In this document: piece after piece, positions 490 to 38,295 of the stretch
Layout: each line of letters opens with the position of its first letter
How positions within the stretch are numbered: the stretch's first letter is position 1
Assembly (NCBI GenBank): GCA_018969615.1
Contig: JAGWYA010000003.1
Coordinates: forward strand, 15,038 to 79,037
Length of the DNA stretch: 64,000 nt
Direction of reading: 5' to 3'
Source of the DNA: Patescibacteria group bacterium
GTDB lineage: Bacteria > Patescibacteriota > Minisyncoccia > UBA6257 > 02-FULL-45-10c
Program-made: the position numbers and the translations under genes
Notes under the pieces: model-generated
Seen by the model: only the letters and a program-made list of their open reading frames with translations
Databases searched by the model: none
What the model was told of the DNA's origin: nothing

Positions 490-712
490 TTTGAGGCTCT
501 GTCTTTACCGCACACCAGCCGATGCGCGGTAAAGAACAAAGAAGCCTGCTCCCAGGATATAAGAAAAAAAGATGCGGGGCAAGGAGATTCGGGTGGCGCG
601 TTGGCTCTGCGCACTGAACCCTTATATTTTTCCGCCCCGAATTTCAATACGGAAAAATATAAAAGTTTAGCGCAAGAAATAACTTACAGAGATTCTCTTT
701 ATTTTCAAACCT

Positions 713-767
713 AAAAAACAGTGCTCTCGCGGCAGTATAAGAACCCGGTACTGCTGCGAGAGCACTG
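713..767 (-). terminator. Very strong 19-bp stem hairpin (cagtgctctcgcggcagta / tactgctgcgagagcactg) with aaaaaa upstream on plus strand (a T6 run on the minus strand): minus-strand intrinsic terminator or sRNA 3' end
   Basis: Near-perfect inverted repeat 719-767 with 10-nt loop; T-run only convincing on minus strand. Confidence 0.6.
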
Positions 768-779
768 TTTTACCTCGTC

Positions 780-905
780 TCTACCCAAGTCAAGCAGTTG
801 ACTCGCTCGCTCACTCGAACCACGCTCGCTAGACACCCCTGCCTGCCAGCAGGCAGGTTCGGTTTCCAACGTCGCTTCGCTCCTGCCTTCCTAATACGGG
901 GTGCG
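780..905 (-). repeat. Copy R1 of a tRNA-associated ~150-nt repeat element (contains the cctgcctgccagcaggcagg palindrome and ctcgctcgc motifs); homologous to 32307-32506
   Basis: Shared blocks with R2: GGG(C/A)TCGAAC..., CGTTGGAA(A)CCG..CCTGCCTGC(T/C)GGCAGGCAGG, GAGCG(C)GAGCG...GTGAG on minus strand. Confidence 0.55.
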
Positions 906-972
906 GCTGGTTCGAGCCCCTCAAGCCCTTCCAAGAAATTCTAAACCCGCCAAATGGCGGGTTTAGAATTTG

Positions 973-1055
973 TGGGCGCTGAGGGACTCGAACCCCCGTA
1001 GTCATAAAGACGTCTGGTCTACAGCCAGATGCAATTGCCGCTATGCGAAGCGCCC
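973..1055 (-). tRNA. tRNA-Tyr (anticodon GTA) with long variable arm
   Basis: Reverse complement GGGCGCTTCGCATAGCGGCAATTGCATCTGGCTGTAGACCAGACGTCTTTATGACTACGGGGGTTCGAGTCCCTCAGCGCCCA; anticodon loop cTGTAga; 83 nt. Confidence 0.85.
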
Positions 1056-4909: not shown

Positions 4910-7084
4910 TTATTCCAACTTCAAACTCAATACCTTTGAAACGCCGTCCTCTTCCATCGTCACGCCGTACAGCACATTCGCCGCTTCCATCGTCGCGCGG
5001 TTATGCGTGATCATCAGGAACTGCGTTTTTTCGGAAAAATCCCGGACAATATCCGCGAAGCGTTTCGTGTTCTTTTCATCAAGCGCCGCATCCACCTCAT
5101 CGAGTACCAGGAACGGCGGCGGGCTTACGGAAATAAGCGCGAACAGCGCCGCGATGGACACCAAGCTTTTTTCGCCGCCGGACAGCATATCAAGCCCGTG
5201 GATCCGCTTGCGAGGCAAGCTGAGCTCGATCTCAATACCGAGCTGTCTCAACTCATCGGTCTCAAGATCATCCGCTTCCTGCTGATGGATCCGAAGCTCT
5301 TTTTCTTCCTCGGTCAGATCGGCCGCCTTCGGCTCCTCAGGTTTTTCCAGCACCAGCTTCGCCTTGCCGCCGCCGAACATCAGATTAAAGAACTTATCGA
5401 ACTCTTTATTGATCTTATCCAGAGATTCATGGAACTCATGGTCGATCTTCTGCTCGAGGTCCTTGATAAGCACCTCGAGGTCCTTTGCCGCCTTCTCAAG
5501 ATCGGTCAGTTGGCCGGTCAGGAACGTATGCCTCGTCTCAATATCCTCCGCTTCCTTAATGAGCGCGTGATCGACATCGCCGATCCCCGCGATCTCGCCG
5601 CGAAGCCGGAGCATTTTCCGTTCCGTTCCCGCAAGGTCCTCTACTGCCGGCGGGTTCAACGCAAGCTTTTCGATCTCTTCCATGGTCCGGCCGATCTGCC
5701 CCACCTGGACCTCGACATCCTGGCGGCGCAAATTGATCCGTTCCACTTCGAACAATAAACGATTCTTATCGTTCTCAAGCTTCATGATCTCCTCTTTCTT
5801 CTTTTCCACCTTCTCGAACGCCGCACGGAACTCCGCGTTGAACTGTTCGTACCCTTTTGCAGATTCCTCTTCTTTTTTCGAAAGCGCCGTCAGCTCTTCG
5901 CGGATCGGACCGAGCTTCTGCATCAGCGCATCCTTGGTTCCTTTCAGGTCCTGGATCTCGCTCTTCTGTTTTGAGTTCCGGTCGGTGAACTTGGCAACCT
6001 TCTCCTGCAACGCACGCAGCTCGGCATGAACCGCCTCAAGCGTCTGTTCTTTCAAAAGCTTCACAATGCTATCCTTCACTTCCTCCAGCGCGGTCAAAAG
6101 CTCGCCGGCGCGGAGGTCAACGCGTTCGCTCGCTACCACTGAGTTCAAGAATTCCATCTTCGCCTCCAATTTCCCGACCTCGTGCTCGATCTCTGAGCGC
6201 TGCGCCAAAAGCTGGTCGCGCTGTTTGCGGATATCGCCCATGCCCGCATGCTGCGGTTTCGCCGATTCGGTCTTTTCAAGATCTTTTTTCAGCGCCTCAA
6301 GTTCTTTCCGCTTTGCCGCCATCGCCGCATCAAGCGCCGCGATCTCCGGGTCGAACTTTTTCTTTCCTTCGGCAAGCTCCTTCAGACGGTTCGCATAATA
6401 CGCATTCTCAAGATCATGCAGTTCCTTTTCAAGATCGCCAAGCTTCCCCCACTTCGCGGTCTGGCGCTTCAGGAAACGCAAATGCGGCGCGATCTCTTCG
6501 ATCGTCGCTTTCACTTTTTCAATATTGATGGAGGTGTTCTTCAACTTCCGGTCCGCCTCATGCTTCTTCAACTGATACTGGCGTAAACCGAGAATTTCCT
6601 CGATCATGGCGCGGCGCTCCTCCGGAGTCACCCGCACGAACAGATCGCTCGAACCCTGGCTGATAATGGAAAGACCGCGCGTACCGAGGCGAACCTTCGC
6701 AAAAAAATCGATGATATCCTTCAGGCGAACCTCGTCCTTATTCAAATAATAGTGCGAATTCCCGTCCCGCTCGATACGGCGCATGATCGTCACTTCTTTA
6801 TAATCCACCGGAAAGAATCCCGAGCTGTTGTCGAAGGTCATGCTCACCTGCGCCATGCCCATGCGCGGACGCTTCGGCGTACCGGCGAAGATCAGGTCTT
6901 CCGCCTTGCCGCCGCGGAGGTTCTTCGCCTCCCGTTCGCCGAGGATCCAGCGAACCGCGTCAATGACATTACTTTTGCCGCTGCCGTTCGGTCCCACAAT
7001 ACCGGCAATACCGCCGGGAAAATCCAAAACGGTCTTTTGGGCAAAAGACTTGAATCCGAGAAGCTCAAGACGCTTCAAATACAT
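4910..7084 (-). CDS. smc: SMC-family chromosome segregation ATPase, unusually short (724 aa) with no evident hinge domain
   Basis: N-terminal MYLKRLELLGFKSF...GPNGSGKSN Walker A; C-terminal LSGGEKSLVSIAALFAL signature and LVLDEVDAALD Walker B; long coiled coil between; start set at M17 of track ORF. Confidence 0.8.
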   Translation of the reverse strand: MYLKRLELLGFKSFAQKTVLDFPGGIAGIVGPNGSGKSNVIDAVRWILGEREAKNLRGGKAEDLIFAGTPKRPRMGMAQVSMTFDNSSGFFPVDYKEVTIMRRIERDGNSHYYLNKDEVRLKDIIDFFAKVRLGTRGLSIISQGSSDLFVRVTPEERRAMIEEILGLRQYQLKKHEADRKLKNTSINIEKVKATIEEIAPHLRFLKRQTAKWGKLGDLEKELHDLENAYYANRLKELAEGKKKFDPEIAALDAAMAAKRKELEALKKDLEKTESAKPQHAGMGDIRKQRDQLLAQRSEIEHEVGKLEAKMEFLNSVVASERVDLRAGELLTALEEVKDSIVKLLKEQTLEAVHAELRALQEKVAKFTDRNSKQKSEIQDLKGTKDALMQKLGPIREELTALSKKEEESAKGYEQFNAEFRAAFEKVEKKKEEIMKLENDKNRLLFEVERINLRRQDVEVQVGQIGRTMEEIEKLALNPPAVEDLAGTERKMLRLRGEIAGIGDVDHALIKEAEDIETRHTFLTGQLTDLEKAAKDLEVLIKDLEQKIDHEFHESLDKINKEFDKFFNLMFGGGKAKLVLEKPEEPKAADLTEEEKELRIHQQEADDLETDELRQLGIEIELSLPRKRIHGLDMLSGGEKSLVSIAALFALISVSPPPFLVLDEVDAALDEKNTKRFADIVRDFSEKTQFLMITHNRATMEAANVLYGVTMEEDGVSKVLSLKLE

Positions 7085-32242: not shown

Positions 32243-32286
32243 AGATACATCGTATCACAAAAACACCCGCTATCCGGATGTTTTTG

Positions 32287-32506
32287 TTTTGTGCCTGTGG
32301 CAGGGAATCTCACTCGCGCTCGCTGGATCTCACTGACAAGACGCTCGCGCTCTTTGGAACCTGCCTGCCGGCAGGCAGGCCCGGCGGTTCCAACGCCCCG
32401 CAAAATGCGGGGCTGCCTCCGCTCCGGAGAAACTTCCGTTTCCCCGACCCCCTTCCCGTTCGATCCCAAACACAAAAATAAATACCCCGCTCTGCGGGAT
32501 ATTTAT
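32287..32506 (-). repeat. Copy R2 of tRNA-associated repeat element, bounded by a 20-bp duplication of the tRNA-Met 3' end (ttttgtgcctgtggcaggga at 32287-32306 and 32507-32526)
   Basis: Exact 20-mer direct repeat; internal sequence homologous to 780-905 (R1). Confidence 0.6.
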
Positions 32507-32511
32507 TTTTG

Positions 32512-32583
32512 TGCCTGTGGCAGGGATCGAACCTGCGACCTCGGCCTTATGAAGACCTCGCTCTACCACTGAGCTACACAGGC
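32512..32583 (-). tRNA. tRNA-Met (anticodon CAT; elongator or Ile2-lysidine type)
   Basis: Reverse complement GCCTGTGTAGCTCAGTGGTAGAGCGAGGTCTTCATAAGGCCGAGGTCGCAGGTTCGATCCCTGCCACAGGCA. Confidence 0.75.
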
Positions 32584-33072: not shown

Positions 33073-33249
33073 ATTGCGCGGTGAATGGGATTTCTCCTCG
33101 CCCGTCGCTCGCAGCGCACCACGTGCAGGCTCGCTCCTCCTTCAGAGCCGGGGTTTCCAAAAACATAAAGCAGTTTATGTTTTTGGAATACCCTTCAAAT
33201 CCCTCACATTCATGAATTATAAAAGCAGAGCTTTAGCTCTGCTTTTATA
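33073..33249 (-). repeat. Copy R3 of tRNA-associated element bounded by 21-bp duplication of tRNA-Asp 3' end (attgcgcggtgaatgggattt at 33073-33093 and 33250-33270)
   Basis: Exact 21-mer direct repeat; interior shares GAGCGAGC/GCGAG..GAGAAATCCC tail motif with R2. Confidence 0.55.
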
Positions 33250-33253
33250 ATTG

Positions 33254-33327
33254 CGCGGTGAATGGGATTTGAACCCACGATCTCCTCCGTGACAGGGAGG
33301 CGCTTTAGGCCGCTAAGCTACCACCGC
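33254..33327 (-). tRNA. tRNA-Asp (anticodon GTC)
   Basis: Reverse complement GCGGTGGTAGCTTAGCGGCCTAAAGCGCCTCCCTGTCACGGAGGAGATCGTGGGTTCAAATCCCATTCACCGCG. Confidence 0.8.

Positions 33328-36219: not shown

Positions 36220-38295
<2,076 letters not shown>

Follow-up and report, generated by a model that had tools for sequence, protein, structure and literature searches.

Three intergenic segments in the analyzed window, which is the whole stretch of 64,000 nucleotides, lie directly beside tRNA genes, and two of them end in exact copies of the neighboring tRNA 3′ end. This raises the question whether the segments, named R1, R2, and R3, are remnants of integrated elements, copies of a small element which inserts at tRNA 3′ ends, or RNAs derived from tRNA trailers. 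On balance, R1, R2, and more distantly R3 are probably copies of a non-coding insertion module, here called X, which occupies the position directly 3′ of tRNA genes in a clade of Patescibacteria close to Harrisonbacteria. The Xth protein of the window is 100% identical to an NCBI protein from a "Patescibacteria group bacterium", and homologues of a neighboring protein indicate the proximity to Harrisonbacteria.

All seven tRNA genes of the window are encoded on the minus strand according to ARAGORN and Rfam, and the loci are therefore described in the tRNA sense, i.e., on the minus strand. The three loci have the same order: the intact tRNA is followed by a terminator-type hairpin (H1), an inverted, somewhat degenerate copy of the segment from the T-loop to the 3′ end of this tRNA, a body, and a further terminator-type hairpin (H2), with a direct copy of the tRNA 3′ end (B′) between body and H2 only at R2 and R3. 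The G-rich body (31–40% G on the sense strand in every copy) comprises two conserved hairpins, hairpin 1 with a GNRA loop and hairpin 2 with a variable apex. In R1, R2, L003, and L178 (loci in other genomes carry L numbers) this apex holds a palindrome, P. The inverted copy is able to pair either with the tRNA 3′ end across H1 or, as a closing element, with B′; one strand of the closing stem is identical to the 3′ strand of the tRNA acceptor/T-arm helix. Insert sizes range from 95 to 220 nt across the copies, three of which, all diverged, are found within the 64-kb window. The features of the R1 locus are:

972–1055, minus strand: tRNA-Tyr(GTA), host of R1 (ARAGORN and Rfam)
936–971, minus strand: H1 of R1, a terminator-type hairpin AAATTCTAAACCCGCC-ATTT-GGCGGGTTTAGAATTT directly 3′ of tRNA-Tyr (from sequence)
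780–935, minus strand: R1 body, an X element of the R1-type variant (~93% identity over ~80 nt to the tRNA-Met element of L164, manual count; core common with L166)
909–928, plus strand: inverted copy of tRNA-Tyr from the T-loop to the acceptor 3′ strand, 19 of 21 positions (local alignment)
870–893, minus strand: conserved core segment TAGGAAGGCAGGAGCGAAGCGACG, 22–23 of 24 positions matched in L164 and L166
838–857, no strand assigned: palindrome P, minus-strand CCTGCCTGCTGGCAGGCAGG, which differs from the perfect form by one change and is nested within the hairpin 2 apical loop
813–821, minus strand: direct copy of the tRNA-Tyr T-loop, GGTTCGAGT, which pairs with the inverted copy and closes R1 (sequence; minimum-free-energy fold)
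712–779, minus strand: H2 of R1, the second terminator-type hairpin (from sequence)

Here, H1 is the center of a long palindrome formed with the tRNA-Tyr 3′ end and its inverted copy. The start of R1 at position 780 agrees with the initial annotation, whereas its end moves from position 905 to about 935. The features of the R2 locus are:

32512–32583, minus strand: tRNA with anticodon CAT (elongator-Met type), host of R2 (ARAGORN and Rfam)
32507–32526, no strand assigned: first copy of the direct repeat, the functional tRNA-Met 3′ end plus trailer (read directly; repeat searches)
32471–32506, minus strand: H1 of R2, a terminator hairpin, 80% similar to H2 of R2 and largely unrelated to the corresponding hairpin of the sister species (~51%)
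32307–32470, minus strand: R2 body, an X element of the canonical type (covariance model 82.7 bits; 92.3% identity to L003)
32458–32474, plus strand: inverted copy of the tRNA-Met T-loop region, GTTCGATCCC, exact (local alignment)
32426–32445, minus strand: hairpin 1, GGGGAAAC-GGAA-GUUUCUCC, with GNRA loop; two pairs changed on both sides
32354–32393, minus strand: hairpin 2, UUGGAACC...GGUUCCAA, with P at the apex; two pairs changed on both sides; the L176 version is without P
32360–32379, no strand assigned: palindrome P, perfect copy; 0.03 chance matches expected in the window
32287–32306, no strand assigned: second copy of the direct repeat (B′), the displaced tRNA-Met 3′ end (direct reading; repeat searches), found also in L003 and, with G replacing the first base, in L176
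32249–32286, minus strand: H2 of R2, the second terminator hairpin, just upstream of xth

The features of the R3 locus are:

33254–33327, minus strand: tRNA-Asp(GTC), host of R3 (ARAGORN and Rfam)
33250–33270, no strand assigned: first copy of the direct repeat, the functional tRNA-Asp 3′ end plus trailer
33216–33249, minus strand: H1 of R3, a terminator hairpin with two compensatory pair changes compared to L003 (alignment)
33094–33215, minus strand: R3 body, a divergent family member whose long hairpin is AT-rich and whose right end is of the GCGAGCGACG type (91.7% identity to L003; no score with the R2-type covariance model)
33194–33207, plus strand: inverted copy of the tRNA-Asp T-loop, TTCAAATCCC..TCAC (local alignment)
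33073–33093, no strand assigned: second copy of the direct repeat, B′ (direct reading; repeat searches)

The exact 20-mer ttttgtgcctgtggcaggga occurs at 32287–32306 and 32507–32526 and the exact 21-mer attgcgcggtgaatgggattt at 33073–33093 and 33250–33270. Both tRNA 3′-end duplications, already reported in the initial annotation, were recovered by direct reading and by repeat searches. Displaced 3′-end copies of tRNA-Met and tRNA-Asp are located about 200 nt downstream of these genes. The repeats comprise the last 2–4 nt of the T-loop, the 3′ strands of T-stem and acceptor stem, the discriminator base, and 3–5 nt of the trailer. No CCA is encoded, and therefore the direct copies derive from the tRNA gene and not from the mature tRNA. 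By calculation, only ~0.002 exact 20-mer pairs are expected by chance in 64 kb. At R2, the similarity runs on into both terminator hairpins with 80% over 41 nt (repeat family D17). The inverted tRNA copies at 909–928, 32458–32474, and 33194–33207 had been missed before.

Sequence blocks common to all three segments had been proposed, and this holds for R1 and R2, whose homology is significant (local score 28.5 vs. a shuffle maximum of 17.5). In contrast, R3 is marginal against R1 (14.0 vs. a shuffle mean of 9.6 and maximum of 14.5) and gave no sequence match to R2 in local alignments against shuffles; its likeness to the others consists of the common architecture and the GCGAGCGACG-type right-end motif. 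The R2-type covariance model gives no score for either R1 or R3, which identifies these two as divergent subtypes. The X family is heterogeneous, and R3 belongs to it mainly by its architecture. Furthermore, much of the block common to R1 and R2, which had been taken for homology of the element, is the 20-nt palindrome P (CCTGCCTGCCGGCAGGCAGG). In L164, the junction of hairpin 2 is uninterrupted (GGAAACCGAA/GGTGTC), and the R2 orthologue in L175/L176 is without P as well. As P is missing from the same hairpin in L164 and L176, it is nested, and it represents a micro-insertion of its own, independent of X, within the hairpin 2 apical loop. R1 shares with the R2-type elements the linker GTAT(T/C)(A/G)GGAAGG and hairpin 2.

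A metagenome scan using the 3′ 35 nt of tRNA-Met as query returned nine loci. L163, L171, and L169 are empty sites, in which an identical tRNA is followed by a terminator only, while L166, L164, and L168 contain X and L165 and L170 a decayed form of it. The sequences 3′ of the tRNA are homologous in L163 and L166, which makes these two loci a true pair of empty and filled site: compared to L163, L166 has gained H1 and X, and its old 3′ end, now GCCCTCCTACAGGCAC, is still joined to the original terminator. An empty tRNA-Asp site was identified in L172, where the tRNA is identical, no element is present, and a neighboring protein is 66% identical to that of the window. For tRNA-Tyr, the empty site is L177 (EF-Ts 91% identical), which lacks X and has a Tyr-Thr tRNA spacer of 161 nt vs. 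482 nt in the window; L179 contains only a remnant of an R1-type element. Empty sites in related genomes, which the initial annotation had named as a check, thus exist for the tRNA-Met, tRNA-Asp, and tRNA-Tyr loci, and as they adjoin identical tRNAs, the direct repeats do mark insertions at tRNA 3′ ends as suggested there. Both the anatomy of X and its insertion polymorphism are direct observations.

The same body is found behind several different tRNAs. The R1 core GGG(A/G)CTCGAACC...CCCCGTAT(C/T)AGGAAGGCAGGAGCGAAGCGACG recurs behind tRNA-Met in L164 (~93%, manual count) and in L166. In L178, whose EF-Ts is 80% identical, an R2-type body is located behind tRNA-Tyr and is accompanied by a Tyr-matching inverted copy (GGCGCTGGACTCGAACCC) and a direct copy (GAGTCCCTCActGCCCACAAA). 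R1 itself has no direct duplication, as described before, but this is lineage-specific, since the tRNA-Tyr copy of L178 has one. In addition, a covariance model trained on four R2-type sequences detected compact X copies of ~95 nt behind tRNA-Trp in L178 (E = 1e-11) and behind an initiator-type tRNA-Met in L168 (E = 1e-9), both with matching inverted and direct copies. The repeats match the local tRNA at each copy, and therefore the flanks follow the local tRNA while the body is common. The earlier idea of a miniature non-autonomous element which targets tRNA 3′ ends gains support from this shared body. Unrelated islands cannot have left behind one common core whose repeats match the local tRNA at each site.

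The bodies are strongly constrained. Compared to the sister species (L003/L004, Xth 92% identical), the R2 body is 92.3% and the R3 body 91.7% identical to L003, and the right half of R2 including B′ shows 2 mismatches in 114 alignment columns (98%). For ten flanking genes, in contrast, third codon positions are only 41–74% identical between the two species, most of them 52–63% (~57%). A poorly conserved small ORF between the loci gave no blastn alignment to the sister species, and H1 and H2 of R2 are unrelated and unalignable between window and sister species. R2-type blocks are still recognizable in L175/L176, where the neighboring protein is only 56% identical, and the block GGGATCGAAC within the R2 inverted copy is unchanged in four lineages. 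As the conservation of the X bodies is far above that of the flanking third codon positions, neutral decay is ruled out. The description of the segments as decayed integrative-element scars is not supported in view of this conservation and of the lack of an integrase gene nearby.

Covariance analysis, a further check named in the initial annotation, points to a folded molecule. In hairpins 1 and 2, 98.7% of the cells are standard pairs and four pairs are changed on both sides (four sequences), a pairing level which is reached in only 5 of 500 shuffles and collapses in versions with slid partners; the covariation is based on four to six sequences, the training set includes two close relatives, and P had been cut out manually prior to alignment. 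The hairpin 1 loops of the different copies (GGAA, GGGA, GAGA) are all of the GNRA type. Two G·U pairs would be A·C mismatches on the opposite strand, so that the constrained strand is the tRNA-sense strand. Generic hallmarks of a structured RNA, i.e., compensatory changes and conservation above the neutral level, are thus present in this small sample. The closing stem is built of tRNA-derived sequence, and its conservation could therefore also reflect gene conversion from the tRNA instead of function.

Promoter prediction gave no promoter-like site for X on either of the two strands, and tRNA and X are separated by a terminator. Expression of X, if any, would occur by read-through. For the structured trailer RNA that the initial annotation had offered as an alternative, the covarying hairpins and GNRA loops on the tRNA-sense strand speak in favor, whereas the missing promoter prediction and the preceding terminator speak against it. 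With Rfam 15, only tRNAs exceeded the gathering threshold in the whole window, and at E ≤ 10 the three loci yielded tRNAs and noise. No ORF is conserved across the X copies; coding potential was rejected, as the ORFs of R1 and R2 are in different frames relative to P and absent from L164. Neither the neighboring ORFs of the window nor the annotated syntenic loci contain a Pfam domain of a tyrosine or serine recombinase, no autonomous partner of X was found, X was not observed in an excised or circular form, and a viral scan for the X core motif gave 0 matches. In the literature, no description of X or P was found, nor any report on GIY-YIG proteins together with tRNA duplications in bacteria.

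X was also compared with several known types of element, of which a pseudo-tRNA, a group I intron, an integron attC site, and a CsrA-type sponge were rejected. Relaxed ARAGORN searches for a pseudo-tRNA, with P and one hairpin removed, gave only inconsistent calls, and the right part of R2 aligns weakly to tRNA-Met positions 19–73 with a score driven by the exact 20-mer. A group I intron in the T-loop is not supported, as no Intron_gpI match or core is present, the tRNA is intact, and X is located 3′ of it. A 5′ exon- or guide-like pairing is present at X; the rule that an intron has U at its 5′ splice site and G at its 3′ end is followed only in L166 and L176 and neither in the window nor in L178. 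An intron-like interruption of tRNA-Thr was seen in L178. With respect to integron attC sites, the ends ATCGAAC and GTGAGAT match RYYYAAC and GTTRRRY only partly. GGA is about twice as frequent in X as in the window background, but a CsrA-type sponge was rejected, since the G-rich composition accounts for this excess. With regard to miniature elements of the IS200/IS605 type (PATE) and omega-RNAs, which have a TnpA or TnpB partner, insert without target duplication, and carry subterminal hairpins, X has hairpins, its active strand is the tRNA-sense strand, and B′ is located where a flank-derived guide would be; on the other hand, X has direct repeats, and neither tnpA nor tnpB was detected among the scanned ORFs. 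A Y1 transposase gene is located 5 kb away in the relative L175.

The palindrome P is widespread on its own. Exact copies are present in at least 120 genome stretches (one genome per species), whereas ~4 were expected by calculation. The matches listed come from Patescibacteria, Omnitrophota, Planctomycetota, Verrucomicrobia, Thermodesulfovibrionales, and cultured Bacteroidota, with unrelated flanks. In IMG/VR, 35 viral contig stretches contain P, vs. 0 stretches for each of two control palindromes with an identical composition. Among the matches listed, 16 P sites lie less than 400 nt from a tRNA, and at ~15 loci P precisely interrupts one copy of a local duplication, namely of tRNA 5′ fragments, the 5S rRNA 3′ end, or the 5′ end of a gene. 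A small GIY-YIG ORF is located between the P-interrupted tRNA 5′ fragment and the intact tRNA in L046, L086, L115, L127, and L159, and L176 has a GIY-YIG ORF between tRNA genes. A motif scan revealed none in the window, and none lies inside any 3′-side X element; the GIY-YIG link to X is by association only. That P always sits on a hairpin apex was rejected: flanking complementarity of at least 6 bp was found at 10% of 162 listed sites vs. 3% of random junctions, so that the apex position is a tendency and not a rule. One P-derived insertion is located inside a coding gene of the window:

36988–37008, minus strand: P-derived 21-nt in-frame insertion (AMPTGRQ) in the NAD-dependent DNA ligase gene ligA (boundaries good to 1–2 nt)

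It matches P at 18 of 20 positions and is absent from the orthologues in L004 and L175. Judged like a mitochondrial GC cluster, P is more frequent than expected from composition and has P-free orthologous sites in L164, L176, L004, and L175.

Like tRNA-targeting integrative elements and their CIME-type derivatives, X is inserted toward the 3′ end within a tRNA gene and regenerates the tRNA, its direct repeat starts in the T-loop, and empty sites exist. Of the features of an att pair, the direct repeat (R2 and R3; for R1, its counterpart in L178) and the empty site are present, but a recombinase gene is not. X differs further by its size of 95–220 nt instead of kilobases, the absence of an integrase in or near it, one conserved hairpin core for several tRNAs, an additional inverted target copy, and a constrained sequence. 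With MITEs, Correia elements, RUP, REPINs, and Rickettsia palindromic elements, X has in common that it is small, non-coding, hairpin-forming, and bounded by inverted repeats; as in other non-autonomous repeats of bacteria, its presence varies among relatives and other small elements nest inside. Unlike MITEs, its terminal inverted repeats are copies of the local tRNA which differ from tRNA to tRNA and are not element-specific, the duplicated target comprises 17–24 nt or more instead of 2–9 nt, and the copies found are strictly tRNA-adjacent and without a known autonomous partner. X behaves like a miniature tRNA-targeting integrative element or a MITE, yet departs from the definition of both by the missing recombinase and the target-derived ends.

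Functional RNAs derived from tRNA trailers or resembling tRNAs include the 3′ETS-leuZ sponge, YrlA, and viral tRNA-like structures. X resembles them in its trailer position, its structure, and its mimicry of a part of the tRNA, but has no Rfam match, is preceded by a terminator, and copies the tRNA on its 3′ strand only. Near tRNA genes, free-standing genes for GIY-YIG homing endonucleases are known, e.g., SegB of phage T4. The P loci are similar to such homing cassettes in that small GIY-YIG ORFs lie within a duplicated tRNA interval in related and unrelated genomes, whereas no such ORF is present in the window or in X. Like GC clusters, P is a short GC-rich palindrome which is polymorphic among relatives, intergenic, sometimes genic, and often tRNA-adjacent. 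Unlike these lineage-specific organelle repeats, it has 20 nt and the same sequence in different bacterial phyla and in viral contigs; a duplicated AG target was not observed, and where a local sequence is duplicated, P often interrupts one of the copies. Mitochondrial GC clusters, with GC42 of yeast as an example, are short GC-rich palindromes (PMC4478555), and PstI palindromes of Neurospora flank tRNA genes according to Yin et al., 1981, as cited in PMC4478555. Group I introns have been described in tRNA genes of Patescibacteria (PMC13011429), without mention of duplications or palindromes in that study.

As the empty and filled sites show, X is inserted together with a fresh tRNA 3′ end and a terminator within the segment from the T-loop to the trailer. 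An insertion inside this segment leaves the tRNA intact and pushes the old 3′ end downstream. Since X does not carry a gene, its movement must depend on an enzyme from another locus. The most likely routes of mobilization would be recombination within the 17–24 nt of tRNA identity, i.e., a Campbell-type integration of a tiny circle, or a widely staggered break followed by fill-in. By either route, the local tRNA would be the source of the flanking repeats or would keep them in agreement with itself. We infer these routes of insertion, as well as how the inverted copy arose, a role at the RNA level, and the mobilizing enzyme. After insertion, X does not decay, and its hairpins are maintained by selection on the tRNA-sense strand, which suggests that X acts as a single-stranded nucleic acid. 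In the simplest case, read-through would extend the tRNA transcript at its 3′ end into X.

That orthologous sites are strongly conserved agrees with an RNA of benefit to the host no less than with a selfish element. A structured non-coding RNA of the host, which derives from the tRNA trailer and is not currently mobile, is a less probable explanation than the insertion module. After read-through, the inverted copy and B′ would fold into a mimic of the acceptor/T-arm helix, which RNase P, RNase Z, or the CCA-adding enzyme could process, or which could serve as a decoy or sponge; the patchy distribution would then result from a dispensable gene being gained and lost. A conservation that greatly exceeds the neutral level, hairpins with covariation, GNRA loops, and G·U pairs valid only on the tRNA-sense strand, the high G content of this strand in every copy, and the retention of the same locus as far as L176 agree with such an RNA. 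Functional tRNA trailers are known, e.g., 3′ETS-leuZ in Escherichia coli. It is less compatible with the terminator before X, the lack of a predicted promoter and of an Rfam family match, and the absence of X from the same tRNA in the close relatives L177 and L172. The same core behind four or five different tRNAs with freshly matching flanks requires duplication and insertion, i.e., mobility. That R2 and R3 are ordinary attL/attR remnants of tyrosine-integrase islands at the T-loop sublocation, with nearly all DNA lost, is unlikely. Direct repeats of the tRNA 3′ end starting in the T-loop are the classical footprint of an integrase, and Williams is said to have described anticodon-loop and T-loop integration sublocations in tRNA genes in 2002. 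The empty sites in relatives and a 1.27-kb cargo between such repeats in L040 also agree with this origin. Nevertheless, no integrase gene was found in or near any copy (syntenic loci and window ORFs), the inserts of only 95–220 nt have one conserved structured core behind different tRNAs, their bodies are constrained and not decaying, the inverted target copy has no counterpart in att sites, and mirror-image 5′ duplications and a 5S rRNA example exist.

The order of direct, inverted, and direct copy could also be a by-product of replication or repair without a dedicated element or function, caused by fold-back or template switching at the terminator palindrome and P beside heavily transcribed tRNAs. 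This possibility is very unlikely and already disfavored. The inverted copy of L166 includes the locus-specific trailer and was hence made in place, P often interrupts one copy of a local duplication, and the pattern of direct copy, hairpin, inverted copy, and direct copy resembles duplication-inverted triplication-duplication rearrangements. However, a conserved non-tRNA core with 85–93% identity across loci and organisms, the covariation, and the conservation between species are left unexplained by it. Finally, P, and with it the similarity of R1 and R2, might be an artefact of sequencing adapters or assembly, which was rejected as having next to no probability. The flanks of P are unrelated in many metagenome-assembled genomes, short-read contigs of the same species end inside or beside P, and the stem around P presumably resembles the 454 FLX paired-end linker. 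In contrast, P is found at the same orthologous site in the window and in three independent sister-species assemblies, is present in cultured Bacteroidota isolates, has accumulated substitutions, and is in frame inside ligA; the control palindromes gave 0 matches. To our knowledge, P matches no known adapter.

For X as an insertion module, a broader reading together with P can be given, which is speculative and as a whole rather doubtful. X would be a mobile element acting as a folded single-stranded RNA or DNA, which mimics the acceptor/T-arm helix of the host tRNA by means of the inverted copy and B′, borrows the machinery for tRNA processing or recognition to home into T-loop-to-trailer segments, and provides the tRNA with another 3′ end and a terminator. 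P, as a separate matter, would be the smallest mobile DNA known to spread horizontally, placed precisely into hairpin loops, tRNA fragments, and coding genes across phyla and phages by an enzyme encoded elsewhere, with the accompanying GIY-YIG nucleases as one candidate.

Genes for tRNAs are the classical landing sites of kilobase-sized islands with an integrase, and X follows the same logic in ~100–200 nt and without a gene, conserved like a functional RNA and with flanks tailored to each tRNA. P is an exact 20-mer common to distant phyla and phages, with demonstrable insertions, one of them in frame in an essential gene, and offers a tractable handle on the spread of very short palindromes, a question still unresolved for mitochondrial GC clusters. 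In practice, displaced 3′ ends and P-interrupted fragments can mislead tRNA annotation and the prediction of integration sites. The reduced genomes of Patescibacteria are known for introns in their tRNA and rRNA genes. As a host RNA, X would constitute a family without annotation that is linked to several tRNAs; as a mobile element, it would represent a new minimal way to parasitize or service tRNA genes in these reduced genomes.

The 20-nt palindrome P, a nested insertion in hairpin 2 of the module copies R1 and R2 beside tRNA-Tyr and tRNA-Met, was found as an exact 20-mer (CCTGCCTGCCGGCAGGCAGG) in at least 120 species genomes from many phyla, where its flanks are unrelated (L008-L127). The exact sequence was also identified in 35 stretches of viral contigs (L128-L162), and up to six copies are located on one 29.5-kb contig. 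Two control palindromes with the same composition as P gave no matches in the viral contigs. Logan short-read contigs of the window species (L001:1-122, L002:1-100) end within or beside P, upstream of xth, and assemblies may be broken by P or by the repeats of the module.

A P-derived sequence is also present inside a protein-coding gene of the window:

36988-37008, minus strand, P-derived in-frame insertion of 21 nt in ligA (NAD-dependent DNA ligase)

The ligase thereby gains the residues AMPTGRQ between its zinc-finger cysteines. The orthologous ligA genes of the sister species (L004) and of a more distant relative (L175) lack this 21-nt insertion.

On the 5′ side of tRNA genes, a mirror image of the modules known from the 3′ side was observed, in which a duplicated tRNA 5′ fragment is split precisely by P:

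L012:4424-4481, tRNA 5′ fragment split by P
L039:3618-3790, the same
L046:2100-2480, the same
L086:2686-3050, the same
L115:3680-4061, the same
L127:5791-6160, the same
L159:490-600, the same, on a viral contig

The entry point of P in these fragments is usually the D-loop/D-stem junction, e.g., GGTAGA|GC. Either a short spacer or a small ORF for a GIY-YIG nuclease separates the split fragment from the intact tRNA that comes next. A GIY-YIG ORF is also located between both tRNA-Met genes of the more distant relative (L176:4456-4713), directly upstream of the one bearing the module. At a distance of about 5 kb, this relative encodes a transposase of the Y1 (IS200/IS605) type (L175:668-1351).

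In the sister species, the tRNA-Asp gene is preceded by a 77-nt insertion (L003:3786-3862), which is missing at the corresponding position of the window (about 33328). The initial 14 nt of tRNA-Asp (GCGGTGGTAGCTTA) recur in this insertion, which also places a TATAAT box 7-8 nt ahead of the start of the tRNA. It looks like a counterpart of the 3′ modules that bears a promoter where these bear a terminator.

The two terminator hairpins on either side of R2 (window 32471-32506 and 32249-32286) are 80% alike, but largely unrelated to those of the sister species (L003:4760-4805 and 4984-5030), whereas the enclosed element is 92-98% identical in both species. Hairpins appear to undergo rapid turnover or exchange. 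An intergenic segment of about 220 nt (window 490-711), with the second R1 terminator on one side and the tRNA-Thr(TGT) promoter region on the other, contains further hairpins; its counterpart is absent in the close relative L177.

Further altered tRNA genes were observed. In a phage-borne tRNA-Met (viral contigs L152:2239-2330, L129:8570-8660), P lies exactly within the variable region, and ARAGORN therefore calls a tRNA of 92 nt that has a long extra arm. This tRNA may still be functional. In the relative L178 (6373-6670), about 240 nt of inserted sequence, which is probably a group I intron, interrupts the anticodon loop of tRNA-Thr(GGT). A 159-aa ORF lies before it and a GIY-YIG ORF after it; a second GIY-YIG ORF is located at 945-1220 of this locus. 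Partial tRNA copies also form arrays: four 3′ halves of tRNA-Thr in a row, with P in the T-loop of the fourth (L038:4737-5160), and three tandem tRNA-Gly 5′ pseudo-copies with a GATCCGCC-TGA-GGCGGATC hairpin in place of the anticodon arm (L127:2450-2860).

Finally, in a Saccharibacteria metagenome-assembled genome (L102:807-1130), the 3′ end of a 5S rRNA gene is duplicated beyond its terminator, and the displaced copy is split by P and an 85-nt GCGAG-rich block. The phenomenon therefore extends beyond tRNAs.
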